From Minisyncoccia bacterium (GTDB lineage: Bacteria > Patescibacteriota > Minisyncoccia > UBA6257 > JAAZHW01), in assembly GCA_041550235.1 (NCBI GenBank), contig JBFEPE010000001.1, positions 8,003 to 72,002 of the forward strand: DNA of 64,000 nucleotides. The letters run 5' to 3'. The notes beneath the pieces are model-generated. The model was not told where the DNA came from. It searched no databases and saw only the letters and a list, made by a program, of their open reading frames with translations. This document shows, one piece after another, positions 15,766 through 42,581 of the stretch (the first letter of the stretch is position 1; the number at the start of each line of letters is the position of its first letter). The position numbers and the translations under genes are program-made.

Positions 15766-15945
15766 CTGTTTGTTCTTTTTAAATTTAAAATCTTTTTGAT
15801 CTACTTGCAGAAGGTCTTGAGATGCATTTTAGTTAGCAGGGGGGAGGCATTTTTTGCCTGGTTAAGACCATATTTTCCCTAGACCCAAACGGGATACCCC
15901 CATTGCTTTATTTAATAGTGTCCTTTTTAAAAAAAGGACAAACAG
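15766..15945 (+). other. 23S expansion segment / IVS bounded by ctgtttgttc...ggacaaacag
   Basis: About 180-nt insert relative to consensus 23S domain I/II. Closed by a 10-bp inverted repeat. Confidence 0.5.
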
Positions 15946-16011
15946 ATGTGGCGGATAATGGTGTGCCTATTGAAGAATGAGCCAACGAGTGTATGGATAT
16001 TGCTGATTAAC

Positions 16012-16119
16012 CCAGCCCCAGTTTTATGATAGTTTTCTAAAGTGAATAAAATTTTGATTCGCTTTGGAACGAGCGACATGTGTGTTGCTGATAAAACTTA
16101 TTGGTAAAACTGGGGCTGG
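16012..16119 (+). mobile_element. 23S intervening sequence copy b (same terminal inverted repeats, different interior)
   Basis: cccagccccagtttt...aaaactggggctgggg. Confidence 0.7.
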
Positions 16120-16660
16120 GGAAGTCAAAGGGAAACCAAGTCTTAACAGGCGACAACAATTTTTTCTTTTGGTCTTATTGGCTAAAGGAAAAATTTGTAA
16201 GTAGTATTCATACGACCCGAAGCCAGAGCGAGCTTGCCATGGCCAGGGTGAACCTCATCGAAAGATGAGGGGAGGCCCGAACCGTTAGGTCGTGCAAATC
16301 CTTCGGATGAGCTGTGGTAAGAAGTGAAAAGCTAATCGAGCCTGGTAATAGCTGGTTCTCCTCGAAATAGTTTTAGGACTAGCGTCTATTTTATCCTATT
16401 GCAGGTAGAGCTACTGGTTGAGAAGAATAGGGGGCAACCTCGGCTTCTTAGTCAAACTCCGAATGGTGATAGGTTATGAATAGGCAGTTAGACTGTGGGG
16501 GCTAAGCTCCATGGTCAAAAGGGCATGAACCCAGATCGCCATCTAAGGTCCCTAAATCTAGACTAAGTGTTGCAAAAGGTAGTGATCGACCGAAGACAGG
16601 TAGGATGTTAGCTTAGAGGTAGCTATCATTTAAAGAGTGTGTAACAACCCACTGCCATAT

Positions 16661-16762
16661 CCAGCCCCACTTTTTAACTTGAAATCTAAATTTTTCATTG
16701 GTTTATAATTGCAAAAAGTTTTAAATCGTGATTTATAGATTCTAGCTAAAAAGTGGGGCTGG
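16661..16762 (+). mobile_element. 23S intervening sequence copy c (variant termini CCAGCCCCACTTTTT / AAAAAGTGGGGCTGG)
   Basis: Inserted between gagtgtgtaacaacccactg and ggtcg of the conserved helix. Confidence 0.65.
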
Positions 16763-17377
16763 ATTGGTCGGTTGCATCGAAAATGTATCGGGGCTAAGTC
16801 TAGTACCGAAGTTGCGAATTTCCTCGCTTTTTAGTGGGGGAGTGGTAGAGGAGCATTCCATATGTGATGAAGCTGGACCCGAGAGGGCTGGTGGAGTATA
16901 TGGAAGAGAGAATGTTGGCATGAGTAACCGCAAGCAAGGTGAGAAACCTTGTCGCCGAAAACCCAAGGTTTCCGTGGCAATGTCAATCAGCCACGGGTTA
17001 GGCGGCCCTAAGGCGATGGCGAAAGCCGTAGTCGATGGACAGCTGGTTAATATTCCAGCTCTTCTAAGTAAATTCGATGGAGTGACGGGGGAAATAAGGT
17101 TGAGTGTCTTATTGGTTTGGCATTACTACCCCTAAGAAATGTTTTTTTGGTAAATCCGGAAAACTGCTTTTAATAGCGAATTTCGGGGGATGCAAAATTC
17201 CGCTTCGGCGGGAAATTTGACTGAATAGCCCTCCAAGAAAAGCTTCTAAGATATATTTATTTAGAATCCGTACTCTAAACCGACACAGGTGGGTAGGTAG
17301 AGAATACCAAGGCGAACGGGTGAGTCTTCCTTAAGGAACTCGGCAAAAAAGCGACCGTAAGTTCGCGATAAGGTCTT

Positions 17378-17683
17378 CCAGCCTCAGTTTTGTGTTATAA
17401 TTTATGATATGTGGGTTGTATATATCATACAAAATGATTTTTCAGAAGAAATCTATATCGGCATAACCAAGGATTTAAAAAGAAGAATCTCAACTCATAA
17501 TTCTAATGGCAAAAAATTTACCACTAGGAAAAATGGTAAATGGATTTTGATTTATGCTGAGGCATACAAGTCAAAAAAAGATGCTATTGTAAGAGAGATG
17601 AAATTGAAAAATCATGGAAGTGCAAAGCATAATTTAATTAAACGAATTAAAAATAGTTTAATTGAACACAAAACTGAGGCTGG
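17378..17683 (+). mobile_element. 23S intervening sequence copy d, carrying a GIY-YIG endonuclease ORF (termini CCAGCCTCAGTTTT / AAAACTGAGGCTGG)
   Basis: Same terminal inverted-repeat architecture as copies a-c and e, but 306 nt long with an internal ORF. Confidence 0.7.
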
Positions 17684-17756
17684 ACGCAGCGAAAGTATCC
17701 CTGGCGACTGTTTATCAAAAACACAGGTCCCTGCTAACTCGCAAGAGGATGTATAG
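17409..17756 (+). CDS. GIY-YIG family homing endonuclease-like ORF inside 23S IVS (C-terminal ~25 aa read through into rRNA exon)
   Basis: VYIIQN...YIGITKDLKRRISTHN matches GIY-(10)-YIG with conserved R and H/N. The ORF starts 18 nt inside the IVS. Confidence 0.6.
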   Translation: MWVVYIIQNDFSEEIYIGITKDLKRRISTHNSNGKKFTTRKNGKWILIYAEAYKSKKDAIVREMKLKNHGSAKHNLIKRIKNSLIEHKTEAGRSESIPGDCLSKTQVPANSQEDV

Positions 17757-17800
17757 GGGCTGATGCCTGACCGATGCGGGAAGGTTAAATCTGGCGGTCC

Positions 17801-17901
17801 CCAGCCCCAGTTTTTATCTAGTGACGAAAATTTGAATTTAATTAATTTATTAAAAAAGATTATTTATTCAAATAAAAGTGGCTGGTTAAAAACTGGGGCT
17901 G
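17801..17901 (+). mobile_element. 23S intervening sequence copy e (near-identical to copy a)
   Basis: ccagccccagtttttatctagtgacgaaaatttgaattta...aaaactggggctgg. Confidence 0.7.
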
Positions 17902-18379
17902 GGGGCTAACTGGATGAAGCCCCCGTCAATGTCGGCCGTAACTATAACGGTCCAAAGGTAGCGAAATTCCTTGTCGGGTAAATTCCGACGTGCATGAACG
18001 GCTTAACGACTGGGGAACTGTCTCAAGGAAGAGCCCGGTGAAAATGCAATTTCAGCGAAGATGCTGAGTACCCGCAGCAAGACGAAAAGACCCCGGGAGC
18101 TTTACTGTAGCTTGGTATTGGGCTTGAGAATGTAATGCGTAGCATAGGTGGGAGACTTTGAAGTTTCAATTTCGGTTGAGATGGAGTCGCCAGTGAAATA
18201 CCACTCTTTATATTTTTAAGTTCTAACCTTGATGGAAAAAACATTAGGGGACAGTGCCTGGTGGGCAGTTTTTCTGGGGCGGAATCCTCCCAAAGAGTAA
18301 CGGAGGAGTTTATTAAGGTCAGCTAGGTGCGGATGGAAATCGCACTGATAGTGTAAAGGCAAAAGCTGGCTTAACTGCG

Positions 18380-18480
18380 AGGCCTACAAGCCGAGCTCTA
18401 TTTCGTGTTTCGCATAAGAACTTTCAAGAAAATAATAATTCTACCCCCGCCCATACGGGCGGGGGTAGAATAGGCAAATT
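18380..18480 (+). repeat. 23S expansion containing a GC-hairpin repeat (ctacccccgcccatacgggcgggggtag)
   Basis: About 100-nt insert relative to consensus. It carries the same hairpin family seen in intergenic regions. Confidence 0.5.
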
Positions 18481-18596
18481 TAACTCTGGAATTTCTTGTG
18501 CGGAGCATGAGATAGACTTTCTAGATAATTATATTTAGATCGAGATACGAAAGTAGAACTTAGTGACCCGATGGTTCTCTGTAGAAAGGCCATCGA

Positions 18597-18628
<32 letters not shown>

Positions 18629-18766
18629 TTAGTTGCGCCCAAGAGTCCATATCGACGGCGCAGTTCGACACCTCGATGTCGGCTCATCTTATCCTGGAGG
18701 CGGAGAAGCTTCCAAGGGTTTGGCTGTTCGCCAATTAAAAAGATACGCGAGCTGGGTTCAGACCGT

Positions 18767-19122
18767 TGAGTAGTCAAGATAATTTTTGGTTTTTAGGGTG
18801 GATAGTGTGTTTCTTTCTCTTAAATTAATTAAAATTATTATTAAATTGACTTTTCAGCAGTCTGAATCCGAGGAATAAGACATCAATTTACGGCGGCATT
18901 TCGTAGTAATACGGAATGAAAAACCGACTCATATCGGTGGAATCCCAATGGGACAATACCGAGGGAAGTTGTGTATGTTAATATCATGGTGGTCATTTCG
19001 TCAAATAAAAGATAATGTTAAATGACATGCATTAACCCCGTAGAGACTATATGTCGGTCTCCTCTTTTGACAAAGAGGACGAAGATATAGTCCAATGCAC
19101 TTAGTAATAAGTGGGAAACATG
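18767..19122 (+). mobile_element. Group I intron in 23S rRNA (ORF-less, ~356 nt)
   Basis: Exon junction gaccgt|cgtaagacaggttgg reconstitutes conserved GAACGUCGUGAGACAGUUCGG. Intron follows a U and ends in G. R-like gtagagacta (19040-19049) and S-like aagatatagtcc (19082-19093). Confidence 0.6.
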
Positions 19123-19263
19123 CGTAAGACAGGTTGGTCTCTATCTGCTGTGGGCGTTGATACTTGAGGGAATTTGACCCTAGTACGAGAGGACCGGGTT
19201 GAACGAACCTCTGGTCTATCAGCTTTCCTACCAGGGGAATTGCTGAGTAGCTAAGTTCGGTTG

Positions 19264-19296
<33 letters not shown>

Positions 19297-19480
19297 CATC
19301 CCAAGATTAGGTATCCATTTCAATTTATTGGAAGTCATCCCCTCAGAGACGATGAGGTTGATAGGCTTTAGGTGTAAGGTCAGTAATGATTTTAGCCAAG
19401 AAGTACTAATCGGATGAGTTCTGCCTCGATGAGAGATATTATTTATTATTAATATCAATTTTTACCCTTATATTTTTAAG

Positions 19481-25645: not shown

Positions 25646-27070
25646 ATGAATAAAAATAAATTTAAAAACAAAAAGGTTCTATTGATGGGATTGGGGATAT
25701 TGGGTGGTGGAGTAAATATCGCAAATTGGCTCATTTCACAAGGAGCTATTTTGACTATCACGGATTTAAAAAAGAGAAGCCAATTAAAAGAATCAATTCT
25801 CAAATTAAAAAATAAAGACAAGCAAAAATTTGTATTAGGAAAGCATAGAAAAGAAGATTTCATCAACAATGAAATTATTGTCTTAAATCAAGACATCCAA
25901 TTAAACAACCCCTTTTTAAAAATCGCCGAAGAAAATAATAAGCAAATAGAAGACGAACTCACTCTATTCTATAAAAATAGCCCATCAAAAAATATAATTG
26001 CCATTACCGGCACAAGAGGAAAAACAACCACATCAAATTGGATAGCCCATCTATTAAGAAAAAAATTTAAGGGAATAAAGGCAATAGGAAATTCTCCTGA
26101 AAATTCTTTGATAGGGAATATAAATAAAATAAAGAAGGGGGAGCCAATAATCATTGAATGCCCATCCTGTATTTTGGAGCAAGCAAACAGAGTCAAATTT
26201 TCTCCAAAAATAGCAGTCATCACAAATATTTATAGGGACCATTTAAATAGACATAATGGGAAAATTAGGGAATATGCCATTACAAAAGCAAATATATTTT
26301 TAAATCAGAGCAAGAGTGATCTTTTGATTTTGAACTATAAAAATAAATGGACGAACTTTTTTATCAAGATGAAACCAAGGGCGAAAATTTTATTTTTCTC
26401 TACTTCTAATTTGTCAACCCAATTGAATGGAATATTTATTAAAAAAGGGGAGATATTTTTCAGGGAAAATGGCAGGGAAAAATTTATTTTTCATACAAAG
26501 AAATTTGTTGAAAAATGGGGAAGTCATAATTTGGAAAATATTCTGCCAGCCATTTTAGTTTCTTTGAAAAATGAAATCTCTGTGAGTGATGTCGTGAGTG
26601 GGATTGATGAAATTCCTCAAATCAAGTTTAGGCAAGAATTAGTTTTTAATAATGGCAGATTAAAAATATATAACGATACGGCATCTACCTCTCCAGAAGC
26701 AGGCATTTCTGCTATAAAAAGATTTTATAATAATGGGAGTGGCGATAAGGTTGTTTTAATAACTGGTGGAACAGATAAGGATTTGGATTATTCAGAGTGG
26801 GCAAAGTATTTGAAAAAATATTTCAAAAAAGAAAATGTTGTTTTTCTTTCTGGGAGTGCGACTGATAAGATGAAGAAGGAGGTTGAATGGGAAAAAGTGA
26901 TTGAGTTTAATTCTCTGAAAGAATGTTTTGATAAGGCGATAAGAATGACTGGAGAAAATAATTCAGCAACTATTGTCTTTTCGCCCGCCTCAAAGTCATT
27001 TGAGAAATTTAATAATGAGTTTGATAGGGGAGAGCAATTTAATAATCTCATCAATAAATTAAGTATTTAA
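25646..27070 (+). CDS. murD: UDP-N-acetylmuramoylalanine--D-glutamate ligase
   Basis: KKVLLMGLGILGGGV Rossmann N-terminus. IAITGTRGKTTT P-loop. 474 aa. Confidence 0.85.
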   Translation: MNKNKFKNKKVLLMGLGILGGGVNIANWLISQGAILTITDLKKRSQLKESILKLKNKDKQKFVLGKHRKEDFINNEIIVLNQDIQLNNPFLKIAEENNKQIEDELTLFYKNSPSKNIIAITGTRGKTTTSNWIAHLLRKKFKGIKAIGNSPENSLIGNINKIKKGEPIIIECPSCILEQANRVKFSPKIAVITNIYRDHLNRHNGKIREYAITKANIFLNQSKSDLLILNYKNKWTNFFIKMKPRAKILFFSTSNLSTQLNGIFIKKGEIFFRENGREKFIFHTKKFVEKWGSHNLENILPAILVSLKNEISVSDVVSGIDEIPQIKFRQELVFNNGRLKIYNDTASTSPEAGISAIKRFYNNGSGDKVVLITGGTDKDLDYSEWAKYLKKYFKKENVVFLSGSATDKMKKEVEWEKVIEFNSLKECFDKAIRMTGENNSATIVFSPASKSFEKFNNEFDRGEQFNNLINKLSI

Positions 27071-27112
27071 ATAATTGCTAAATTATAAATATTTTATAGA
27101 ATTAAAATAATC

Positions 27113-27425
27113 GCCAATGTAGCTCCCGCCGAAGGCGGGCGAAGCAGTTGGTGGAGGTTGGAACATTACGAAGTTGTGTTTCAACCCGTGGTAAGGAGTA
27201 CATTTATTTATATTTTGCCAATGTAGCTCCCGCCGAAGGTGGGCGAAGCAGTTGGTGGAGGTTGGAACATTACGAAGTTGTGTTTCAGCCCATGGTAAGG
27301 AGTATATTTATTTTTATTTTGCCAATGTAGCTCCCTCCGTCGCCAAGGCTATGGAGGGGCATGCAGTTGGTGGAGGTTGGAACATTACGAAGTTGTGTTT
27401 CAACCCATGGTAAGGATTAGATATA
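27113..27425 (+). repeat. Three tandem ~104-bp repeats, each a scrambled tRNA-Thr-like fragment with an embedded GC hairpin
   Basis: Each unit starts gccaatgtagctc (the tRNA-Thr 5' end), carries cccgccgaaggcgggcga and ends c(c/a)tggtaagga(g/t)ta (anticodon loop + 3' stem). Units start at about 27113, 27217 and 27321. Confidence 0.75.
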
Positions 27426-27456
27426 TCTTCTCAAATATTAAAATCTGAAAAAATAT

Positions 27457-27494
27457 GCCAATGTAGCTCAGCTGGTAGAGCAACTCCATGGTAA
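27457..27494 (+). pseudogene. 5' half of a split tRNA-Thr(GGT) gene (acceptor through anticodon loop)
   Basis: gccaatg-ta-gctcagctggtagagc-a-actcc-atggtaa. The 3' partner lies at 45551-45592. Confidence 0.75.
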
Positions 27495-27650
27495 TTTCTC
27501 TCCCGTGATAAGTAGAGTGAAATTAGTTAGAATACAAGAGAAAGTTAATGGATAAGGGGGTTTTAGCGGGGAGGCATCTGGCAAAAATGGGTCGTGGTCG
27601 GTAGATGTAAAAATTATCATTAAACAGCAAAAGGTTATTATATCTCTTTT

Positions 27651-27723
27651 GCCGTTGTAGCTCAGTTGGTAGAGCAACGCCGTGGTAAGGCGTAGGTCAG
27701 CGGTTCAAGTCCGCTCAACGGCT
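27651..27723 (+). tRNA. tRNA-Thr (anticodon GGT), island-borne copy
   Basis: gccgttg/caacggc acceptor. D-arm gctc-agttggta-gagc. Anticodon arm acgcc-gtGGTaa-ggcgt. T-arm agcgg-ttcaagt-ccgct. Discriminator T. Confidence 0.85.
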
Positions 27724-27748
27724 CCTTAAAAAGCATTACAGATTAGTA

Positions 27749-28660
27749 ATGTTTTTTATTATTATGGATATACAAATTTTAGTTCGTAAGTTTTGTGATT
27801 ATTCAACTTTTATTAAAGGATATACTCCGCAAACAATTAAGAGATATAGGCAGACAATTCGTTCCTATATCAAATTCGCTAATATCACTGAAATAGAGGA
27901 AGTGAATTTAGAGAATGTTCGTAATCTTTTTTATTCTGGCCGAACCCAAAGGAATTGGTCAACCAATACCTATATCTGCTACCATAAATCTTTAATTGTT
28001 TTCTTTCGTTGGTGTGTAAGTGAAGGCCACCTTCAATCCAATCCAGCCGAAGAGATTGAAGTGCCGAAACTGGAAAAGAAAATTCCGCCTAAATTAACCA
28101 AGCAAGAAACGATGAGGATATTGGAAGTAGTAGAAAATTATCCTTATATCAATGATTTTTTAAGGCAAAGAAATTATGCTATCTTTGCCACAATCATAAT
28201 GGCAGGATTGAGAAAAAATGAGATTATCAATTTAAGGTGTGTTGATATAGATATTGAAAATCTCTCTATTTTTATTCGGCAGGGGAAAGGAAGTAAGGAT
28301 CGGATTGTGCCAATCAATTACAAATTAGCTGAAATTTTAAGCAAATACGAAAAAGAAAGAAAAAGATTGAAAAAAACTTGCCCCGAATACTTTGTTTCTC
28401 TCTATAAAAATATGGGGATTAGGCATAATGGCTTAAAGTTATTGGTAGAACAAATATCAAAAGCATCGGCGATTAAATTCACTCTTCACAAATTAAGGCA
28501 TACCTTTGCCACAATGATGTTGGAGGGAGGATGTGATATTTATTCTCTCTCTAAAATGATGGGCCATAATGATATAAAAACAACCACAATTTATTTGGCC
28601 GCCAGCATAGAGCATTTAAGAGAACAGATGATTAAACACCCAATGGGAGATGTTTTGTAG
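27749..28660 (+). CDS. Tyrosine site-specific recombinase/integrase (XerC/D-like)
   Basis: C-terminal catalytic box HKLRHTFATMMLEGGCDIYSLSKMMGHNDIKTTTIYL (R..H-R..Y). 303 aa. Adjacent to the tRNA. Confidence 0.9.
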   Translation: MFFIIMDIQILVRKFCDYSTFIKGYTPQTIKRYRQTIRSYIKFANITEIEEVNLENVRNLFYSGRTQRNWSTNTYICYHKSLIVFFRWCVSEGHLQSNPAEEIEVPKLEKKIPPKLTKQETMRILEVVENYPYINDFLRQRNYAIFATIIMAGLRKNEIINLRCVDIDIENLSIFIRQGKGSKDRIVPINYKLAEILSKYEKERKRLKKTCPEYFVSLYKNMGIRHNGLKLLVEQISKASAIKFTLHKLRHTFATMMLEGGCDIYSLSKMMGHNDIKTTTIYLAASIEHLREQMIKHPMGDVL

Positions 28661-28730
28661 GCACTCTTGGATTTACACTTGACTTTTTGTGTGTTTATGG
28701 TTAATATAGTAAGGGAGGTAAAAATAAAAA

Positions 28731-29326
28731 TGTTTACAGAAAAAATAAAAAAGAAAAAAAGAAACATTTCTCAATGCGAATTAACAAGTAGAAGTTCTGA
28801 GAAGCAAAAATCAGAATTAAAAAAGAAAAGAAAGGGATTGGCCAATAAAGACATAAGAAATCTTTTGAAGTTAAGCTCATTTGTTAAGGAGATAATGGAT
28901 TATAATGGTTATAGGGTATTTTTAACTCCAAATGGAGCTGGTGAGATCAGTGGAAGGTTTAAGCAGGTAAAAAGACATATATTAGAGCATAAAATCAAAG
29001 TGAAAACTTCAATACAAAGGTTATTGGAGTATAAAAAAACACTCATAGAAAATGGATCTGGAATAATAGAAAAAGATATTGCCACTATAAACAGAGAAAT
29101 ATATTTTAACTATCATTTATACAAACAAACGAAAAACAGAGAAAAGAGAATTAGAAAAAAGAACAACCCAATAATTGAAGGAATTTCTGAAAGTGGAAAA
29201 GAAAATAGACGACAAAGAAAATTATCAGGAGATGAAGATCAGCAGGTAAGAATAGCTTGGAAAAAATCCCACGATATTATAACCAAAAGTAAAACAAGGA
29301 ATGCTAATCTCAAAAAAGCTAAATAA
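28731..29326 (+). CDS. Hypothetical basic protein (listed ORF from 28667; ATG at 28731 preferred)
   Basis: SD gggaggt precedes 28731. Lys/Arg-rich. No family recognised. Confidence 0.4.
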
Positions 29327-29334
29327 TTAGCACA

Positions 29335-29365
29335 AATCCGTTCTAACTCAGAGCGGATTTTAATT
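29335..29365 (+). terminator. Hairpin terminator
   Basis: aatccgttctaactcagagcggatttt. Confidence 0.5.
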
Positions 29366-29400
29366 TATCTCTTGCCAATAAGAAATTTCGCCGTATAATA

Positions 29401-29592
29401 AAATCAATAATTTAATATGCCTAACCCCTATGATTATTCATAGGGTATGGCGATAAATCCATCCCTGTATTGAGCTCCTCGTTCAGCTTATCAGGGATGG
29501 TCATATTCGGAAACGGATATGGATGATCGCAAGATCGTCAGGTTGGCGGGGAGCTTTGTGTTCCAAGTCAACCACTAAAACCATCCCTAAAT
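29401..29592 (+). ncRNA. Candidate structured cis-regulatory RNA in the 5' leader of the 29593 membrane-protein gene
   Basis: Locally GC-richer. Hairpins ccctatga-ttat-tcataggg; ccatccctg...cagggatgg; tattcg-GAAA-cggata; gatc-GCAA-gatc; ggttg...caacc. A second ccatccc copy abuts the start codon. Confidence 0.4.
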
Positions 29593-30564
29593 ATGAAAAA
29601 CAAAAGCGAAAAATCAGATATATTTGCTCGCATATTCTATATATTTGGTTTTATCCTCAATAGATTATTTTATGTTTTCATTTCTCTATTGGTTATATAT
29701 CTAATTGAAGAATTTGTTTTCAAATCATTAGATATAGCCATTCCTTTTAATAATTTCTTTTGGTGGCTGATTATTTTAGTTAATTTCACAGGATATTTTC
29801 TAAAAATGTTTGGCTGGAAACAAGAAATTAAAATTACCGGCCAAGCATTCATTATCATCTCTTTTGTTTGGATGTGGCTTCAATTTTCCTTTGGTCAATT
29901 CTTAATCTTATTTCCCATTTATTTCTTAACCAAAACAATTGCCGATGTGATTATGATTTTAATAATAAGTTCAGATAAGTTTAATTCCAGTATTAAAGAA
30001 AAAGCCCAGAGAAGAGAAAAAAGCAGATGGATTATCAAAAAAGCTGAAAAGAGAATTTGGTCTGCGAGAGAAGGAGAATGGATTTTCAAGAGAATAAAAG
30101 AATTAACCCAAGAAGAATACCCTAATTTAGAAAAATGGCTTAAAGACGAACCCGAAGATTTTATAGAAAGTATAAAACAAAATGTTTTTATCAATATAGA
30201 GAAAGATATTAAAACAGAGACCGAAGATTTTTTTGAAGAAATTAAAAATCTTTATCTGACAGAAGAGATGAAAATAGCTCTTGATAGGTTAGAAAACGAC
30301 AAAAAAGAAGGCATAACTCGTTTTGAAGGCCTATCCGAAGAAATATCTTTTGACGGCCAAAATACAATTCTTTTTGGAGTAAAACTGACCAAATATCCAA
30401 TCATTGAAGAAAAACTATTATCCAATCCCGAAGTAGTTTATATGAAAGTCCAAGAAGTATCTGAAAAATATCATAACAACAATTACGAAACAGCCATCTC
30501 AATGATTGAAATGGATTTAACCCCTCTTTCAGAAGAAAAAAGAGAGCAATGGTGGAACAGATAG
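29593..30564 (+). CDS. Hypothetical membrane protein (4-5 N-terminal TM helices, acidic cytoplasmic C-terminal domain)
   Basis: Hydrophobic segments LFYVFISLLVIYLI, FWWLIILVNFTGYF and FIIISFVWMWLQF. No family recognised. Confidence 0.5.
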   Translation: MKNKSEKSDIFARIFYIFGFILNRLFYVFISLLVIYLIEEFVFKSLDIAIPFNNFFWWLIILVNFTGYFLKMFGWKQEIKITGQAFIIISFVWMWLQFSFGQFLILFPIYFLTKTIADVIMILIISSDKFNSSIKEKAQRREKSRWIIKKAEKRIWSAREGEWIFKRIKELTQEEYPNLEKWLKDEPEDFIESIKQNVFINIEKDIKTETEDFFEEIKNLYLTEEMKIALDRLENDKKEGITRFEGLSEEISFDGQNTILFGVKLTKYPIIEEKLLSNPEVVYMKVQEVSEKYHNNNYETAISMIEMDLTPLSEEKREQWWNR

Positions 30565-30705
30565 ACCCCATTTGGCACCAAATTGGCACACGGAAAGGGA
30601 TGAGCCAAAAAACATAGGAATATACTCAAATCAAAGAAACAAGCCCAAAAATTGAAAATTTGCCCTCAAATTCGGCACTCCACAGATATATTTCATTGAT
30701 TTCTA

Positions 30706-30774
30706 CCTCAAGAAGAGTAGTATTAGGAATATATAATATCAGAGGATAATAAATCCCAATACTCTTCTTGAGAT
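30706..30774. promoter_or_regulatory. 18-bp inverted repeat upstream of the R-M operon (possible operator)
   Basis: ctcaagaagagtagtattagg ...30 nt... cccaatactcttcttgag. Confidence 0.35.
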
Positions 30775-30837
30775 AGGGATTAAATTTTTAACAAAATCAT
30801 TGATAAATAGTTAAAAATAAGCGATAATATAGATATT

Positions 30838-33216
30838 ATGGATATAAAAATAGTAAATAAATATCTAAGTTCTCAAAAATTGAAAGCAGTGGAAATGCTT
30901 GATTTTGAAAATGGGAAAATAAAGTATTCTGATTTAATTAAACAATACAGGGAAATAAAGAATTTTAAAGGAAATGAAGAAATTGTTAGAGCTTATTTAT
31001 TATCCAAACTTTCTAATGAATTAGGATATAAGTTGGAAAATATTGAAATAGAAAAAGAATATGATATTGGTCGGCCAAAGGTTAATAAGCCAAGAATTGA
31101 TTTAATCGTCAGGGACGATGAAGGAAATGCTTTTCTATATGTTGAATTAAAAAGCCCTGAGGAATATGAAAAAAACAAGGATGAAGTAATTGAAAAACAA
31201 TTATTTGGCTTAACTTCTCAGGAAAAGGGACAAGGAAAAAATGTGAAATATCTTGTTCTCTATTCTTTTGAAATTATAAACGAAGAAATAAAAGATAGAG
31301 CAATTATTATTGATTATGAAAAATATTCATCTTTTGATAAGTGGGAAGAAGAAAGAAATTTTACTGATGAATTGCCAAAAAGATACGGTAAAGCCCAAAA
31401 AGAGCCATACAAAAAAGGTGGCAAAAAAGACTTGAGAGCCGATTTTGCTCCCGAAGAATTAGAAGCAAAAAGAAAAAATCTTCATAATGTTTTATGGGGT
31501 GGGGGCGGAACAGACGATAACGAAATCTTTGCCTCTTTGGTAAGAATTATTTTAGCTAAAATTCAAGATGAAACTGAAAGAAAAAATGGTGAAAAATATG
31601 AATTTCAGATTTTTTCTTTTCAAGACGGGGATAGCTTTGAAAGTAATGAAGAAATTTTTGAAAGAATAAATAAACTTTACAGAAGGGCTTTGAAGGAAAA
31701 AATGTATATTACCGATGAAAACAAGATAGAAAAATCTTTTGTTATTGATGAAAACAAGTTTTCTATTAGTAAATTAAAATATACTATTTCCGAGTTAGAA
31801 GAATATTCTTTTGTTGATGGAAAAGATAGCTTTAATGGAAAGGATATTTTAGGCCAATTTTTTGAGGGTATTGTCCGAGACGGCTTTAAGCAAAATAAAG
31901 GGCAATTCTTTACTCATTCTAATATTGTCCAATTTATCCTTTATGCCCTTCAATTAGATAAATTGGCGATAGAAAGAATAAATAAAGATAAAGAAATTCC
32001 TTATTTGATTGATCCTTCGGCTGGAAGCGGAACATTTTTGATTGAGTATATGAATTTTATTACTCAAAACATTAAATACAAACAAAAAGATAAATTAGAT
32101 AATAACCGAGATATTGAAGATAAATTCAATGACTGGTTTATGCCTTATAATAGAGAGAATAAATGGGCTAAAGATTTTATCTATGGCGTAGAACATAACT
32201 TTGATTTAGGAACTGCCTCAAAAGTTAATATGATTTTACACGGAGACGGCTCAACAAATATTTTTGTTAAAGACGGACTTCTTCCTTTTAATTACTATAC
32301 CAAAGACAAAGGAGTTAATATTCTTGATGATGAGAAAGAAGATAAAGAATATTTTGATAAGAATATCAACGGAAAATTTGATGCTATTATTACTAATCCG
32401 CCTTTCTCGGTGGATTTAGATAAAGATACTAAAAAAACACTAAAAGATAGTTTTGTTTTTGGGGATAAGAAAAATTCTGAAAATCTTTTTGTTGAAAGGT
32501 GGTATCAATTATTAAAAGAGAATGGAAGATTGGGAGCAGTCTTGCCTGAAAGTGTTTTTGATACTACGGAAAATAAATATATTAGATTATTTTTATATAA
32601 ATATTTTAAAATAAAGGCGGTTGTTTCTTTGCCTCAATTAGCTTTTCAGCCCTATACTTCCACTAAAACCAGCTTGCTTTTTGCCCAAAAGAAAACCCAA
32701 GAAGAAATTAAAAAATGGGATGAATTATGGGCGACTTATTCTAAGGATTATAGTCAATTAAAAACAAGGGTAGAAAAAGAGGTAGAACATTTTATCAAAG
32801 GAAAAGAAATTCAAAAGAGTTGGGCTATTGCTAAAGAAACAGAGAAAAGAAGAAAGGATAATGTTCTTTATCTTCTTAATCAAGTTATAGATAGAAAGAT
32901 TGATTTAGATTTATCTCTTCAAGAATTGGTTGAAAAATATCAAGACGAAATAATAGATCTGTTGAAAATAGAGAAAGAAACAGATGTTTTTGGCTTTGTT
33001 AATGCTTGGTGGGTATTTGGTGCTGTTTCTAAAGAATTGGATTATCCAATCTTTATGGCCGAAGTTGAAAATGTTGGTTATAAAAGGACAATAAGAGGAT
33101 TAAAACCAATGCCAAATGATTTATTCAGAAGGAATGAAAATGGCGAAATTATGATTGATGATAATAAAAAAGAAACCGCTTTAGATTTTATGAGGTCGGA
33201 TGTGGAGTGGGATTAA
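30838..33216 (+). CDS. Fused restriction-modification enzyme: N-terminal PD-(D/E)XK nuclease + gamma-class N6-adenine DNA methyltransferase (Type IIG/IIB A-subunit-like)
   Basis: PRIDLIV...FLYVELK (D...ExK). MTase motif I LIDPSAGSGTFL. Motif IV AIITNPPFS. HsdM-like VVSLPQLAFQPYTSTKTSLLF. 792 aa. Confidence 0.8.
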   Translation: MDIKIVNKYLSSQKLKAVEMLDFENGKIKYSDLIKQYREIKNFKGNEEIVRAYLLSKLSNELGYKLENIEIEKEYDIGRPKVNKPRIDLIVRDDEGNAFLYVELKSPEEYEKNKDEVIEKQLFGLTSQEKGQGKNVKYLVLYSFEIINEEIKDRAIIIDYEKYSSFDKWEEERNFTDELPKRYGKAQKEPYKKGGKKDLRADFAPEELEAKRKNLHNVLWGGGGTDDNEIFASLVRIILAKIQDETERKNGEKYEFQIFSFQDGDSFESNEEIFERINKLYRRALKEKMYITDENKIEKSFVIDENKFSISKLKYTISELEEYSFVDGKDSFNGKDILGQFFEGIVRDGFKQNKGQFFTHSNIVQFILYALQLDKLAIERINKDKEIPYLIDPSAGSGTFLIEYMNFITQNIKYKQKDKLDNNRDIEDKFNDWFMPYNRENKWAKDFIYGVEHNFDLGTASKVNMILHGDGSTNIFVKDGLLPFNYYTKDKGVNILDDEKEDKEYFDKNINGKFDAIITNPPFSVDLDKDTKKTLKDSFVFGDKKNSENLFVERWYQLLKENGRLGAVLPESVFDTTENKYIRLFLYKYFKIKAVVSLPQLAFQPYTSTKTSLLFAQKKTQEEIKKWDELWATYSKDYSQLKTRVEKEVEHFIKGKEIQKSWAIAKETEKRRKDNVLYLLNQVIDRKIDLDLSLQELVEKYQDEIIDLLKIEKETDVFGFVNAWWVFGAVSKELDYPIFMAEVENVGYKRTIRGLKPMPNDLFRRNENGEIMIDDNKKETALDFMRSDVEWD

Positions 33217-34672
33217 AAAAACTATGGGAAACAACCAAACTTCAGAAAAAATAAAAATAGAGATAAAAGATGTTATGCCTGACTTTAAAGAGCATTTATC
33301 ATTAAAAGGAAATGATAGAGTGTTTTTTTCTGGTAAATTTGGAATTGGAAAGAGTTATTTCTTAAAAGAATTTTTTAGATTAGGAGAGGAAAACTATGAG
33401 GTTTTTTATCTATTACCAACGAGGTATCAAATAAGTCCCAATGAAGATATTTTAGATTTTATAAAATACGATGTTTTAGTTGATTTAATAAATAAAAATA
33501 AAGAAATTTTTAAAGGCAACAATTTTAATAGCTTTATAGATCTAAAAAGATTGTTTTATATTTGGGGCAAGGATAATTTTTACGAGATTTTTAAAAAGGG
33601 GTTAGATTTTATTCCAAAATTAGGCAAACCTTTAAAAGAAGTCGTTAATTTAATTGATAATTTTAGAAATTTCAAATACGAAGTTGAATTAGGCGACAAG
33701 GGTTTTGTAGATAATTACATCAAGGAAATAAAGTCCAAAGATATAGTTGAAAGCGATCATTTAAGTTATTTATTAACTGAAAAAATAAACAATTTAAAAG
33801 GAGAAAAAGAAAGTGTTTTGATAATAGACGATTTAGATAGAATTGACCCAGACAATATTTTTAGAATTTTAAATATTTTTTCTGTTTATTTCAACGAAGA
33901 TAATTCTGAAATGCCTAATAAATTTGGTTTTGATAGGATTATTTTTGTTGGCGACCATAAAAATATAAGAAGTATTTTTAACCATAAATATGGAGAAAAT
34001 ACCGATTTCAGAGGTTATTTCAATAAATTTTTTAGATATAAAATTTATGAATTTGATAACGACAAGGCTATAGAAAATGCTGTAAGTATATTGATAGATA
34101 GTATGAAAGAAGTTGGAATAAATGTATCAAAAATTTTTGAAAAATTAGGATACGGCAGGCTTTTATTGGAAGATGTTTTAAAGAGATCAATAAATTTAAA
34201 ATCAAATAAAGAAAAGGTTAATTTAAGGCAACTTTTAAATGTTTATCTTTTTCCAAGTCTTCATTTAAAAGATAACAAATACTATAACGATCAATTTCTC
34301 TCTATTGCTAAGAAAATGATCCAATTTATAGATTTATCAATTAAGTTTTTAATTGATATTTTTGGTGGAGATGAAAAATTTTTGATAGAAGTTTTGAATA
34401 AGATAATTCTTGAATCTGGATTTTATAAAAATCAAAATTATAGAGATGACCTCTATAATCATTATTCAAGAGCTATATTAAGTGAGATTTTAAATAAAAA
34501 TTTTGTAAAAGATAGTAATAATCCTGCGGAAGAAAAGTGGGAAGAAAATTTAGGTAATGTTATAGGGAATGTGGCCGGAGGCCCTGAATTAAAAGTATTT
34601 TATACCTTGTTAATTAAATACTTAGAAAGTGGTAAATATAAAAAGGATAGTATTAGAAATTATGATTTATAG
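33200..34672 (+). CDS. KAP-family P-loop NTPase
   Basis: Walker A FSGKFGIGKSYFLKEF. KAP-type Walker B VLIIDDLDRIDPDNIF. 490 aa. Overlaps the preceding gene by 17 nt. Confidence 0.65.
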   Translation: MWSGIKKTMGNNQTSEKIKIEIKDVMPDFKEHLSLKGNDRVFFSGKFGIGKSYFLKEFFRLGEENYEVFYLLPTRYQISPNEDILDFIKYDVLVDLINKNKEIFKGNNFNSFIDLKRLFYIWGKDNFYEIFKKGLDFIPKLGKPLKEVVNLIDNFRNFKYEVELGDKGFVDNYIKEIKSKDIVESDHLSYLLTEKINNLKGEKESVLIIDDLDRIDPDNIFRILNIFSVYFNEDNSEMPNKFGFDRIIFVGDHKNIRSIFNHKYGENTDFRGYFNKFFRYKIYEFDNDKAIENAVSILIDSMKEVGINVSKIFEKLGYGRLLLEDVLKRSINLKSNKEKVNLRQLLNVYLFPSLHLKDNKYYNDQFLSIAKKMIQFIDLSIKFLIDIFGGDEKFLIEVLNKIILESGFYKNQNYRDDLYNHYSRAILSEILNKNFVKDSNNPAEEKWEENLGNVIGNVAGGPELKVFYTLLIKYLESGKYKKDSIRNYDL

Positions 34673-34681
34673 AGAATTAAA

Positions 34682-36124
34682 ATGCTAAAAAATTTTACAA
34701 CACAATTTAGAGATTTAGGCAAAGAAACATCAATTAGATTTGATTTCAGTTTTATTGATTTTCAAAATACTTTTTTAGTTAAAGATTATTATTCTTTTAG
34801 TGATTTATTTGAAATTAAGGAGAACAACAGAAAGGATATTTCTGAAATAAAGGATGATTTTTACTATTCAGAAATAGGAAATGTTAATAAATTGGGAGAG
34901 GTTGATCCAGTAAAATTAAATTTTGATGAAAAGTCTGAAGAATATTTAGATTATTTTAAGAAAATAGAGAGGGGAGATATTATTGAGGTCGGGGAAGGGG
35001 AAATTCTAATATCAAAAGTTCGTCCTAATCTAAAGAAATATGTTTTTATTGATGATAAAAATAAAGAATATTTTTATACTTCTGCTTTTATTCACTTAAA
35101 ACCAAAAAAATTAAATAAAGTTTTATATTATTCATTAAGAAGTTTATTTTTTGATAATTTAATAGCTATTTCAAGACAGGGCAAAGGTTATCCTACTTTG
35201 AAAAATGAAGATTTATATTACTTAAAATTCAATAAAGAAATGATTGATAAATTAGAAAGTAAAGAAAAAGATATAAATAGCAAAATAATCCCCAATGAAA
35301 ATAAAATTAAGGAATTGAAAGACAAAATAGAAAAACCGCAGGATATAATCAATGAAGTTTTTGCTAATGAATTTAGTTTTGATTTAAAAAAATTTGAGGA
35401 ATTAAAGAAAGAAAATATTTTTTCTGTTAATTTTAGTGATTTTTCTAATTACCACAGCCTAAGATTTGATTTTAAAAACAAGAAATTTTTTCCAATTTTT
35501 GAAGATATTATTTCAAAACTTGATACAATTAGACTAAAAAATATTGTTTTAGAAGATCCGCTTTATGGAGCAAATGAGCCTGCTATTGATGGTGTTGTTG
35601 GTAATGATATAAGATATGTAAGAATAACTGATATAGATGATTTGGGGGAATTAACAAATAACGAATGGAAAACCGCCGAAAATATAGACGAAGTTTATTT
35701 ATTAAAAGATTTAGATTTTCTTTTTGCGAGAAGTGGTAATACGGTCGGTAAAAGTTTTTTATATAATTCAAATAAACACGAAAAATCTATTTTTGCTGGA
35801 TATTTTATAAAATTTAAAATTGATTTTAAAAATTTAAATCAATTATTTTTCCTTTATTATTCAAAATCTTTTATTTTTGAATTATGGAAAAATGGAATTG
35901 TAAGAGTAAAGGGGCAACCAAATATAAATGCTAACGAATATTTAGAACTTCAAATTCCTAATATCCCATTATCTAAACAAAAAGAAATAGTTAAAAAAAT
36001 AAAATCTCGATTAGATAGACAAGAAGAAATCAAAAAAGAAATAGAAAAAGAGAGGGATAAGATAGATAAAATAATTGAAAATGCTATAATACAAACACTT
36101 GAGGGCTATAAGCCCCTGCTCTAA
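34682..36124 (+). CDS. Type I/IIB restriction-modification specificity (HsdS-like) subunit with two target-recognition domains
   Basis: Two TRD signatures (ISRQGKGYPTLKNEDLYYLKF; ARSGNTVGKSFLYN). C-terminal coiled-coil spacer KQKEIVKKIKSRLDRQEEIKKEIEKERDKIDKII. 480 aa. Confidence 0.7.
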   Translation: MLKNFTTQFRDLGKETSIRFDFSFIDFQNTFLVKDYYSFSDLFEIKENNRKDISEIKDDFYYSEIGNVNKLGEVDPVKLNFDEKSEEYLDYFKKIERGDIIEVGEGEILISKVRPNLKKYVFIDDKNKEYFYTSAFIHLKPKKLNKVLYYSLRSLFFDNLIAISRQGKGYPTLKNEDLYYLKFNKEMIDKLESKEKDINSKIIPNENKIKELKDKIEKPQDIINEVFANEFSFDLKKFEELKKENIFSVNFSDFSNYHSLRFDFKNKKFFPIFEDIISKLDTIRLKNIVLEDPLYGANEPAIDGVVGNDIRYVRITDIDDLGELTNNEWKTAENIDEVYLLKDLDFLFARSGNTVGKSFLYNSNKHEKSIFAGYFIKFKIDFKNLNQLFFLYYSKSFIFELWKNGIVRVKGQPNINANEYLELQIPNIPLSKQKEIVKKIKSRLDRQEEIKKEIEKERDKIDKIIENAIIQTLEGYKPLL

Positions 36125-36152
36125 AATTCGGGGTGAGGGTTTTTGTAAAAAT

Positions 36153-37706
36153 ATGAAATTATTATTAGCTGGGCCAGGGACAGGAAAAACAACAAAAATA
36201 AAAGAGATAATTAACTCCAAATCTGAGAAAGATAGGGTTCTTGTTATATCTTTTACTAATGCTACGGTTCAAGATCTTTTAGCCGATTTTCGCAAAGATG
36301 AAATTAACATAGAAGAAAAAGATTGTAGCACTTTACATAAATATGCTCTACGAATTAACCACCAAAAAAAATTACATATTTTGAATGAGTTTGAAAAAAA
36401 GATATTAGAATTTTATGCTAAAAAATTTAATTCTAATTTTGATGATTTATGTAGAACGCTTGGCTGTATAACCTTTGATCAAATGATCATACAAACATCC
36501 GAATATATAAAGTCAAATCCTTTATATCTAAACGAAATTATTGATGATATTGATTTGTTTATTGTTGATGAATACCAAGATTTCAACCTTATTGAAAGAA
36601 ATCTTATTGATCTAATAGCACAAAAAGCAAAAGATGTTTTTGTACTCGGCGATGATGACCAATGTATCTATGATTTCAAGGACGCAAATTCCGATGGCAT
36701 TATTGAGTTGTATAATTCAAAAAATGTTGAAAATGTTTCGCACGATCATATTTGTTATAGATGCCCCGATAAAATAGTCAGTGCTTGTTTTAATCTAATA
36801 AATAAAAACCAAAAGAGAATTAAAAAAGAGTGGAGGCCAAGTGAAAAAGAGGGAGATCTGATATTTAATCAGATATTAACACAACAGGAAACATCAGAAT
36901 ATATTTTGAATGAGATAAATAAAATTAAACAAGATGACCCCACTTCTTCTATTATGATATTATCTTCAGTAAGGTTTGCCGTTGAGGATTTATTAAATTT
37001 TTTTGATGATAACAAAATGGATTATGTTGATTTTTGGAAACCCAAAATGGATTTAGAAAAATTAAAAAGAATTTGGGAAATAAAAATCGTTTTTGGCGAA
37101 AAAAAATTATTAAATCTTTTATTCCTAATACAATTAAGCATTAAAGGAAAAAATAGCCACATAAAAAAGTGTCAAAAAATAATAAATGAAAATTTGGATT
37201 TTGATGATTTATTAGATTTTTCAAAAGAAAACAATTTATTGGGAGATGAAGTTATTAAATTATTTGATACTAAAATATCCTTAGAAGACATTCTAAAGAT
37301 TAAAAAATATGAATTCTTAAGCGATCACATAAGAGAAGAGTTTCTAAAAGAAGATTTAGAAAAATTGACAAAAATTGTATCGGAGCCAGTAGAATTTAAT
37401 CCAAGTGGAATAAATGTATCTTCTATACACAAATCAAAGGGACTACAGGCAGACTATGTTTTTATATTGGGGGTTGTTGAGGGAATAATACCTAATTCTC
37501 TAAAGGGATTAGATACGATTGAGGCTCAAAGAAGATTATTATTTGTTGGAATGAGTAGGGCAAAAAAGAGGCTTTATCTCGTCTCTACCGCTGAATGGGA
37601 TGGCAAATATGTTCATAGGGTTGATAAAAACAAATTTAAGTTTGATCCAAAATCAAGAAAACACTTAGCAAGCTCATCAATTTTTATTTCAGATCTTGAT
37701 TTATAA
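36153..37706 (+). CDS. UvrD/Rep-like superfamily 1 helicase (short, ~517 aa; listed ORF begins 36099)
   Basis: Walker A LLAGPGTGKTT. Motif II FIVDEYQDFN. Motif III VFVLGDDDQCIY. Motif V SSIHKSKGLQADYVFI. Motif VI LLFVGMSRAKKRLYL. Confidence 0.8.
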   Translation: MKLLLAGPGTGKTTKIKEIINSKSEKDRVLVISFTNATVQDLLADFRKDEINIEEKDCSTLHKYALRINHQKKLHILNEFEKKILEFYAKKFNSNFDDLCRTLGCITFDQMIIQTSEYIKSNPLYLNEIIDDIDLFIVDEYQDFNLIERNLIDLIAQKAKDVFVLGDDDQCIYDFKDANSDGIIELYNSKNVENVSHDHICYRCPDKIVSACFNLINKNQKRIKKEWRPSEKEGDLIFNQILTQQETSEYILNEINKIKQDDPTSSIMILSSVRFAVEDLLNFFDDNKMDYVDFWKPKMDLEKLKRIWEIKIVFGEKKLLNLLFLIQLSIKGKNSHIKKCQKIINENLDFDDLLDFSKENNLLGDEVIKLFDTKISLEDILKIKKYEFLSDHIREEFLKEDLEKLTKIVSEPVEFNPSGINVSSIHKSKGLQADYVFILGVVEGIIPNSLKGLDTIEAQRRLLFVGMSRAKKRLYLVSTAEWDGKYVHRVDKNKFKFDPKSRKHLASSSIFISDLDL

Positions 37707-37715
37707 ATAAAAACT

Positions 37716-38603
37716 ATGACAAAAAAAGAGAATGATTTGTTTATAAACGATTTTCCAATGGTAAATTCAGATGAAGAATTAGAAGAATTATCATTACAAT
37801 ACCCAAAATATGATCCATATTATATAGCCAGTGGCTCAATAAAGGACAGAAAAGAGTATTTTGAAAAACTTTGGAAGATTTATAGAAACTATGCTGATAA
37901 GCATTTTTTGAAAGAAGTTAAAACCAATTTTCATCAGAGGAGTTGGGAGATGTATTTATCTAATTTATTTATTGAAAATGGATTTGAAATTTCCTCTAAA
38001 GATAAGGGGCCTGATATAAAAATTGATTTGGGAGATAGGAATTTATGGATAGAATGCGTGGCTTCAAAAAAAGGCGAGAAATCTGATAAGGTTCCAGATA
38101 TGATGTATGAGGTTGTTCAAGATGTGCCAGCAGATAAAATGTTATTAAGAATAACCAACTCAATAGATAAAAAATTTAAGAAATATCAAAAATATGTGAA
38201 AGACAGCATAATAAAAAAAGGGGATTATTATATTATTGCTGTGAATGCCGGAGGGTTTGGATATATTGTTGATACAGATATGCCTTTAATTCTTAAATGT
38301 TTAATTTCTATTGGTTTTTGGAGTTATAAAAAATTAGAAGATGGATCATTTAGTAAGCCATTTCTTAGCAGGAGAGAATATATAGAAAAACAAAACAAGA
38401 AAAAAGTAAAAATGAATTATTTTGAAGATAAGAAATATAATGGAATTAGCGGAGTTATCTATACTCCAAACAATGTTCTAAATTTAAGAGATAAAGATGA
38501 TTGTATATTTATTAGCAATCCCTTGGCTAAAAATGAGTTGCCAAAAAGTTATTTACCATTTATTCGTGAAGTCAAAATAACAAAAGATAAAATAATTTTT
38601 TAA
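37716..38603 (+). CDS. Hypothetical protein with possible PD-(D/E)XK nuclease core
   Basis: GPDIKIDLGDRNLWIECVASKKG resembles a D...E.K active-site arrangement. Otherwise unrecognised. Confidence 0.4.
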   Translation: MTKKENDLFINDFPMVNSDEELEELSLQYPKYDPYYIASGSIKDRKEYFEKLWKIYRNYADKHFLKEVKTNFHQRSWEMYLSNLFIENGFEISSKDKGPDIKIDLGDRNLWIECVASKKGEKSDKVPDMMYEVVQDVPADKMLLRITNSIDKKFKKYQKYVKDSIIKKGDYYIIAVNAGGFGYIVDTDMPLILKCLISIGFWSYKKLEDGSFSKPFLSRREYIEKQNKKKVKMNYFEDKKYNGISGVIYTPNNVLNLRDKDDCIFISNPLAKNELPKSYLPFIREVKITKDKIIF

Positions 38604-38612
38604 TACGAAAAT

Positions 38613-39065: not shown

Positions 39066-39321
39066 AAATATGGTAGTTTATTATGGTCCGCCAGATATGA
39101 GCGGGATTGAAAAAGAAATAGAGAAATCAAATTCTTCATCTACTCGTTATAACAAGAAAATGCTTTGGGTGGCTGTGGCAACTTTGATTTTTACCATTAT
39201 CGCAGTGGCTATAAGTGCTTATTTAATACTTTGATTTTTTCAATAATTGGTTTAGAAATTTTATTGTTAGAATTTTTATTAAAGTTGAAAATCATAAAGA
39301 AATTAAAAAACATTAAAAACT

Positions 39322-42575: not shown

Positions 42576-42581
42576 AACTTT

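Follow-up and report, generated by a model that had tools for sequence, protein, structure and literature searches.

Upstream of a tRNA-Thr gene that has been split by a mobile element, the genome of a Minisyncoccia bacterium (Patescibacteriota; assembly GCA_041550235.1, contig JBFEPE010000001.1) carries three tandem repeats of about 104 bp, each of which begins with the first 13 nucleotides of that same tRNA, and the question raised by this locus is what the repeats are and how they came to adjoin an integration site. The analysis covered a stretch of 64,000 nucleotides (positions 8,003 to 72,002 of the contig, hereafter the window, whose own numbering and forward strand are used throughout), which is low in G+C overall. 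An 18-kb defence island has split the host tRNA gene at its anticodon loop, the crossover core being the 7-bp sequence ATGGTAA, and the target tRNA is a recurrent integration site for one family of elements in the Patescibacteria. The array, which lies on the chromosomal side of the left attachment site (attL), is probably a pseudogene relic that was multiplied in tandem and that represents positions 1-44, the 5' two-thirds, of the host tRNA-Thr(GGU) gene; no dedicated function is needed to explain its units.

The array and its derivation from tRNA-Thr

The units are arranged head to tail between murD (25646-27070) and the tRNA fragment, at 27113-27216, 27217-27320 and 27321-27456. Tandem Repeats Finder reports a period of 104 bp at 27113-27416 (2.8 copies, 90% matches, score 453) and a repeat finder places three in-register copies from 27113, 27217 and 27332, in agreement with the original prediction of three tandem units of about 104 bp. 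The 13-mer GCCAATGTAGCTC is present in exact form four times in the 64 kb, at the three unit starts (27113, 27217 and 27321) and at the true tRNA 5' half (27457), and when up to two mismatches are allowed there are five matches against 0.76 expected.

In unit 1, tRNA-Thr positions 1-13 are followed by a GC hairpin (27125-27139), a D-loop-like segment (GCAGTTGGTGGAG), a second hairpin of 11-13 bp (27156-27186), a core-like GTGGTAA with GGAGTA (27188-27200) and an AT-rich spacer of 16 nt. Unit 2 shares 95% identity with unit 1 (99 of 104 positions), the first hairpin of both being CCCGCCGAAGGCGGG, with GGTGGG in unit 2. Unit 3 is the more diverged copy, as had been noted originally: there are eight mismatches, the first hairpin is replaced at the equivalent position by a different one that is 11 nt longer (CCCTCCGTCGCCAAGGCTATGGAGGG, 27333-27358) and the spacer is 37 nt (27420-27456) instead of 16 nt. 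The rest of its structured part (27321-27419) includes a second hairpin (27375-27405) that is the same as in units 1 and 2, and the tail ATGGTAAGGATTA. The 3' ends of the units are, in order, cGTGGTAAGGAGTA, cATGGTAAGGAGTA and cATGGTAAGGATTA; on direct reading, the start, embedded hairpin and end of the unit were all accurately described from the outset.

Several candidate identities can be rejected on this anatomy. The array does not encode a repeated peptide, as 104 is not divisible by three, and neither hairpin is an intrinsic terminator, as neither has a run of U residues 3' of it. A CRISPR array, which the original prediction had correctly set aside, is rejected because the whole 104-bp period repeats and the spacers (16-37 nt, AT-rich) are near-identical between units 1 and 2 and units 2 and 3 (CATTTATTTATATTTT and TATTTATTTTTATTTT) instead of unique. 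The antitoxin array of a type III toxin-antitoxin system is likewise rejected, since what lies downstream is a tRNA 5' half, an island arm, a tRNA and an integrase, with no toxin open reading frame (ORF).

It is extremely improbable that the array is an artefact, that is, a repeat expanded or collapsed during assembly. The Logan contigs of sequencing run SRR29257546 carry the identical array sequence, one (L001) ending in unit 1 and another (L009) starting in unit 3; both breaks fall inside a stretch common to the units, and the contig ends hold unit-1-specific and unit-3-specific sequence equal to that of the window. Because a de Bruijn graph breaks at a shared stretch, and at a shared 40-mer only when it has several different continuations, this is the pattern of a real repeat with variant copies, and the three copies do differ. 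The short-read contigs nevertheless break within the array, and the count of three copies is that of the window assembly.

The relationship of the units to tRNA-Thr was confirmed by formal alignment. Unit 1 aligns locally with the reconstructed host tRNA-Thr at a score of 35, compared with a mean of 14.3 +/- 3.0 and a maximum of 26.5 for 500 shuffles. The alignment opens with positions 1-13; about 20 nt of inserted sequence separate these from the D-loop and 3' D-stem (AGTTGGTGGAG against AGCTGGTAGAG), and a further insertion of 25 nt precedes positions 25-44, which appear in the unit as CAAC-CC[A/G]TGGTAAGGAGTA with one base deleted from the 5' strand of the anticodon stem. The tRNA pieces had been called scrambled, a description that does not hold: they are colinear with positions 1-44 and in their native order, interrupted by the two insertions and cut off ahead of the variable loop and T arm, with no 3' acceptor strand. 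The identical 25-nt second insertion, the 1-nt deletion in CAAC-CC and the insertion point of the first hairpin are common to all three units, and because these derived features are shared, the units are copies of one another. They bear the host-type acceptor GCCAATG and so derive from the host gene and not from incoming elements.

Lacking a T arm and a 3' acceptor strand and ending at position 44, the units cannot be functional tRNAs. ARAGORN finds no tRNA in the isolated units or in the array, its only call in the window being 27651-27725, and Rfam at E <= 10 gives no match in 27113-27456, the RtT family included, its tRNA model matching only 27651-27723. Split or permuted tRNA halves that reassemble were also considered and rejected, as such a tRNA would be nicked within its anticodon loop and the units offer no 3' partner. 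As tRNA gene fragments, the units are colinear, on the same strand, upstream and of the 5' type, but their ends do not coincide with the crossover core and no island DNA adjoins them. Instead, each runs 6 nt (GGAGTA) beyond ATGGTAA into the AT-rich spacer of 16-37 nt, which has no arm motif and no integrase, and because of these 6 nt the units are not simple fragments displaced by the island integrase.

The integration site and its element family

The host tRNA-Thr(GGU) 5' half (positions 1-38) occupies 27457-27494 and ends in the anticodon loop ATGGTAA (27488-27494), the attL core, and the displaced 3' half lies at 45551-45593, where the ATGGTAA core is followed by GGAGTAGGTCAGCGGTTCAAGTCCGCTCATTGGCTC. 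The acceptor strand CATTGGC of the 3' half matches GCCAATG of the 5' half, and when the 5' half is joined to 45558-45595, ARAGORN calls tRNA-Thr(ggt). Only the 7-bp ATGGTAA of the anticodon loop is common to attL, in which the 5' half ends ...ACTCC-ATGGTAA, and the right attachment site (attR). With these halves (27457-27494 and 45551-45593) separated by the 18-kb island, the original placement of the units beside the genuine tRNA 5' half and a real integration site proved correct.

The island has a G+C content of 24-31%, compared with about 33-37% in its flanks. Its left arm (the P' arm of attP, 27495-27650) is followed by a spare complete tRNA-Thr(GGU) at 27651-27725 (ARAGORN; Rfam tRNA, 69.5 bits), with acceptor GCCGTTG/CAACGGC, anticodon stem ACGCC/GGCGT and loop GTGGTAA, and by a tyrosine integrase at 27749-28660 (Pfam Phage_integrase, 1.1e-29). 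At the right end, a second tyrosine recombinase (44418-45344), 29% identical to the first, precedes the right arm (P arm, 45345-45550). The core-adjacent part of this arm reads GGTGGAGC-TGTTTA-ATGGTAA, a spacing equal to that of GGTAGAGC-AACTCC-ATGGTAA in the tRNA. The 12-mer AAATGGGTCGTG is found only at 27585-27596 and 45456-45467, as direct copies on opposite sides of the core and about 91-95 nt from it, which fits the pattern expected of the arm-type sites of one attP and makes the pair candidate integrase sites. Related motifs, AAACAGGTC and AAATGGGTCG, are present in the arms of four other loci (L018, L022, L039 and L070), where similar motifs occupy the arm equivalent to the left one here.

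The cargo between the two recombinases (28661-44417) includes an N6 DNA methylase with an HsdR-N domain, a KAP NTPase, a UvrD-like helicase, a GmrSD and Schlafen protein, an EEP-family nuclease and others, as well as a LOOT RNA at 29418-29539 (Rfam RF03000, 86.6 bits, E = 5e-15) that is flanked by two ORFs with no Pfam match (28667-29326 and 29593-30564).

Homologues of the integrase number 1932 at E <= 1e-20, the best 120 of which share 63-76% identity and are nearly all from Patescibacteria, and in a metagenome scan a relative was encoded on 498 stretches; a search of IMG/VR with the integrase as the only query protein gave no match. In every locus inspected a tRNA-Thr(GGU) lies 30-40 bp 5' of the integrase. 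The usual layout starts with a host 5' half ending TGGTAA and continues through an arm of about 120-190 bp to a spare tRNA-Thr and then the integrase (L010/L018, L022, L039, L070 and others); in 14 loci the integrase is preceded by at least two tRNA-Thr 5' starts. In L039, L070/L074 and L073 the displaced 3' half, whose acceptor strand matches, was located 3.3-3.8 kb downstream, marking attR. Because host halves flank them on both sides, the members of this family are real integrative elements, from 3.7 to 18 kb in size, that split tRNA-Thr(GGU) and bring a complete spare instead of rebuilding the gene.

In many members the spare tRNA contains an intron of about 220 nt after GGT (36/37), inside the 7-bp crossover core (L010 5781-6075; L022 4697-4955; L036 249-520; L069 4686-4960; L070 4692-4960; L090 534-800; L093 4689-4960), and because of the intron ARAGORN misses these spares. 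The introns correspond to those published for tRNA-Thr(GGU) in Patescibacteria as 'divergent group I introns', which RF00028 fails to detect and in whose description integrases are not mentioned (PMC13011429); here too, the Rfam model Intron_gpI did not detect the tRNA-Thr intron in L022. The intron-less spares (27651-27725 in the window, and L039) have the anticodon stem ACGCC/GGCGT, compared with ACTCC/GGAGT in the host target. Either the intron or the altered anticodon stem could render the spare tRNA immune to re-integration.

Origin of the array and competing explanations

Short decayed copies of the tRNA-Thr 5' region are found directly upstream of the host 5' half in several other loci of the family. 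In L090 the relic consists of GCCGTTGTA, a 36-nt GC hairpin after position 9, GCTCAGTTGG, GCGGAA and GAGCAACTCCAGGGTAA, with a period of 102; that of L036 has a D-loop hairpin (TCCGTCGGTAGGCGGA) and a period of 52; and those of L069 and L093, with periods of 62 and 43 respectively, both begin GTAGCTGTYTTGGTAGG and have derived changes in common. No relic was found upstream in most of the other family loci inspected. L069 also contains, at 4170-4335 beside a true tRNA-Asp, tRNA-Asp-like ends (GCGGTCG... and ...CGAGTCCCATCGACCGCGCA) with about 130 nt of GC-rich sequence between them, so that this genome of the candidate phyla radiation likewise has a tRNA-derived structure enlarged by an insertion.

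The original prediction offered scars of repeated integration and excision as one origin, and three independent scars of successive cycles would have a precedent in the family. On the left of the element in L070 (4424-4570), 5' half #1 (GCCGTTG) is followed after 70 nt by 5' half #2 (GCCCGGG), and on the right (8289-8400), 3' half #2 (...CCTCGGGC) is followed after 17 nt by 3' fragment #1 (...CCAACGGC), nested stacks that clearly document how one spare tRNA after another was used for integration while the older element subsequently decayed. In the window no corresponding series of 3' fragments follows 45593, all units have the host-type acceptor, their ends are not at the core but 6 nt past it, and their shared derived insertions and deletion mark them as copies of one another, so that the scar explanation does not fit the array and is very unlikely.

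Amplification of a single relic accounts for the shared features. We infer that a partial copy of the tRNA 5' region would have arisen first beside the gene, where similar copies recur at the same hot spot in other genomes, and that this dead copy would then have gained two stem-loops, one with the core of a GC-rich hairpin dispersed through the genome and the other incorporating the CAAC of the tRNA itself. The relic and an adjoining 16 bp of AT-rich sequence would next have been amplified to three copies, probably when the repeated tRNA-like segments recombined unequally or slipped during replication; slippage may have been promoted by the strong hairpins. Finally, the 18-kb defence island would have entered the anticodon loop of the intact downstream tRNA, bringing its own tRNA-Thr. 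The notion of an expanding satellite, also raised originally, stands insofar as it describes the origin of the array by tandem amplification.

The dispersed family to which the first hairpin belongs can be seen within the window. Its 15-nt core, CCCGCCGAAGGCGGG, has 14 intergenic sites at up to two mismatches against 0.01 expected, and these define a family with the core CCCGCC-NNN-GGCGGG, from which unit 1 differs at no position and unit 2 at one; the unit 3 hairpin is unrelated. The other 12 sites (15 nt each) start at 3844, 6189, 6945, 12127, 14942, 21149, 21198, 24569, 54025, 54778, 59607 and 59668. All are intergenic and have no U-run 3' of them, and their outer stems vary yet are always paired. 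The second hairpin (GGTTGGAACAT...TGTTTCAACC), by contrast with this dispersed family, is unique to the units, and its 3' strand incorporates the CAAC of the tRNA. A separate two-hairpin element of about 65 nt was observed in two copies, at 6900-6965 on the reverse strand and at 54770-54850 on the forward strand, with 76% mean identity over a padded alignment of 134 columns and a well-conserved core of about 65 nt; the differences sit in loops or preserve pairing (for example, GCTGCCGAAG versus GCCGCCGGAG), and there was no Rfam match at the gathering threshold.

On the plus strand each unit is predicted to fold into three helices, namely an outer acceptor-like helix (GCCAAUGU with GCAGUUGGU), the variable first hairpin that it encloses and the second hairpin, and to end in a single-stranded tail, C(A/G)UGGUAAGGAGUA. 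Predicted energies for units 1, 2 and 3 are -34.7, -32.7 and -43.0 kcal/mol (z = -3.26, -3.13 and -4.81), compared with -25.2 and -28.5 kcal/mol for the minus strands of units 1 and 3 (z = -2.3 for both). A promoter-like site, TTGCTA-16-TAGAAT (27075-27102), ends 10 nt 5' of unit 1; it has 9 of 12 consensus matches and is also kept in a sister species, but it is weak evidence, as the region overall is not enriched for such sites over shuffles. On the relic reading the units would probably be co-transcribed, as a structured leader, from whichever promoter serves the tRNA locus.

Several observations sit uneasily with a relic that has merely decayed and been amplified. All helices pair better on the plus, tRNA-sense strand (z of -3.1 to -4.8, compared with -2.3 for the minus strand). 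The outer helix and the second hairpin each contain two invariant G-U pairs, four in total, and A-C mismatches are absent; both one-sided stem changes in unit 2 stay paired as G-U (GC to GU and UA to UG), and unit 3 has one double compensatory change along with its wholly different yet paired first hairpin. Such pairing-preserving changes hint at selection on RNA. Furthermore, hairpins within or next to the D arm arose independently in the relics of three genomes (the window, L090 and L036), which pure decay does not predict, and the GGAGTA extension past the core shows that the units are not simple displaced 5' fragments, leaving the origin of the first relic unexplained. To these is added that no close relative with the same locus was recovered in searches with MurD and the flanking gene.

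One alternative is that a structured non-coding RNA descended from tRNA-Thr exists here in three copies, the units being either its genes or its processed modules. In such an RNA an acceptor-like helix would surround a variable hairpin, the second hairpin would be conserved, and a 3' tail (CAUGGUAAGGAGUA), left single-stranded, would copy the tRNA-Thr anticodon loop and 3' stem; the RNA could mimic or sponge a factor that reads the loop (threonyl-tRNA synthetase, a modification enzyme or an anticodon nuclease) or be a functional leader of the tRNA transcript. Besides the stable plus-strand folds and the preserved pairing, 98.8% of cells are paired, compared with 33-51% when the partners are slid; a T in the D-loop, where the host tRNA has C, improves the first helix; and the promoter-like site is accompanied by the absence of a terminator within the array. 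The tandem repeats of the tyrT locus, from which RtT RNA is made, offer an analogy. Against this, covariation is not significant, as 161 of 500 shuffles reach the observed value for three near-identical paralogues whose structure was derived from the same sequences, and palindromic DNA insertions fold as RNA regardless of function.

Nor did the RNA explanation gain homologues, there being no matching Rfam family and none in the related loci, IMG/VR or JGI metagenomes. When the window and 85 loci (605 kb) were scanned with a covariance model built from the three units (R1), only the units themselves scored, the weak matches being ordinary tRNA-Thr 5' halves and GC hairpins. An 18-mer of the unit has seven matches in IMG/VR, of which the four inspected are unrelated coding sequence for a VGGGWN peptide motif; the 21-mer GCAGTTGGTGGAGGTTGGAAC has none in JGI metagenomes, and a flexible-gap pattern with three anchors has none in IMG/VR. 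A functional RNA is regarded as unlikely.

A MurD search of GTDB genomes returned one relative at 93% identity, in a Ca. Paceibacteria metagenome-assembled genome (L014), and a Logan contig (L098) has the same arrangement. Both contain the promoter-like sequence and diverge from the window at 27103, 10 bp upstream of unit 1 (L014 6490-6565; L098 4170-4242), and although they come from different samples they end at the same base, 65 bp past the divergence, which suggests a repeat or variable region there. The flank of the sister species does not occur in the window. Downstream of MurD relatives that share 64-66% identity there is no tRNA-Thr, and the gene that follows the island has relatives at 50-60% identity that are not preceded by a tRNA.

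A different role, one played as DNA, was also raised originally, and the units are in principle candidate decoy or secondary attachment sites that could titrate intasomes or provide alternative landing sites beside attB. The array directly adjoins attB, every unit has ATGGTAA or GTGGTAA followed by GG, and the only other ATGGTAA on the plus strand in 26000-46500 is one at 37758, in the island cargo; moreover, crossover identity in the family is just 7 bp, so that short sites could matter. When the elements of the site (the core ATGGTAA between the inverted half-sites ACTCC and GGAGT) are compared, the core is intact in units 2 and 3 and the right half-site in units 1 and 2. Unit 1, however, has the core mismatch GTGGTAA, the right half-site of unit 3 is damaged (GGATT), and the left half-site is altered in all three (AACCC; CAAC-CC versus CAACTCC), the 1-nt deletion shifting the spacing. 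There is also no integration at any unit, the island having used the intact tRNA, and most family loci are without such an array. Attachment sites are considered an improbable explanation.

Both roles come together in the proposal that selection has kept the units as a host-encoded mimic of the tRNA-Thr anticodon region, acting as structured RNA or as DNA half-sites to steer or block integration by the family, with the relics of L090 and L036 as independent inventions; this is considered a long shot. An amplified relic remains the preferred account of the array.

Relation to known systems

That tRNA gene fragments are by-products of island integration, and that tandem arrays form at tRNA genes (tDNAs), is established (PMC4383910, PMC9897764; Williams 2002). 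In the usual tDNA island, attP carries the 3' part of the tRNA and regenerates the gene, leaving one displaced fragment per island, and the Islander collection holds 3760 3' fragments compared with 159 5' fragments (PMC4383910, PMC9897764). The present locus resembles islands of this type in that partial tRNA copies lie beside a tyrosine-integrase island at the anticodon-loop sublocation, and repeated use of a tDNA likewise stacks fragments. The array differs in that its members are 5' fragments that run past the core, each with two inserted hairpins, that they are copies of one another and that none is accompanied by a separate island, and the present island differs in sharing just 7 bp with its target and supplying a whole spare tRNA.

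The closest formal analogue is the tyrT locus of Escherichia coli, where, as Egan and Landy are said to have described in 1978, a 178-bp unit is repeated 3.14 times beside tRNA-Tyr and is the source of RtT RNA. Each tyrT unit starts with a piece of the tRNA, and the units are thought to have arisen by unequal recombination and are transcribed with the tRNA. In both cases about three tandem units adjoin a tRNA gene and each starts with a fragment of it. The tyrT units, however, lie downstream and derive from the tRNA 3' end, whereas the present units lie upstream and derive from the 5' end, and there is no sequence relation between them.

Two further comparisons are more distant. In the manner of repetitive extragenic palindromic (REP)-like sequences, the hairpin core CCCGCC-GAA-GGCGGG found in units 1 and 2 is one of a family scattered between genes, but just 15 nt of the 88-nt structured part of the unit belong to this family, and no RAYT-type transposase was seen, none having been specifically sought. 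As a short tandem array of structured non-coding units, the locus also recalls the antitoxin arrays of type III toxin-antitoxin systems, in which the ToxI repeat is about 36 nt; here the array precedes a tRNA half with no toxin gene, and the unit is tRNA-derived and three times as long.

Taken alone, the array has curiosity value, as an example of a defunct tRNA gene fragment that gained hairpins and was amplified beside an integration hot spot. Ghost 5' exons of this kind can also confuse automated tRNA and island finders. Its context is more useful, as it revealed a very widespread family of integrative elements in Patescibacteria with unusual behaviour, and this family and the intron inside its crossover core are more promising leads than the array. 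If it were true that the units or the intron modulate integration, they would represent a simple conflict between host and mobile element over a tRNA gene, played out in minimal genomes.

Elsewhere in the window, the 23S rRNA match at 15016-19428 spans 4413 nt against a model of 2925 nt, and the additional sequence of about 1.5 kb holds an ORF for a GIY-YIG endonuclease (17409-17756; Pfam 3.7e-18).

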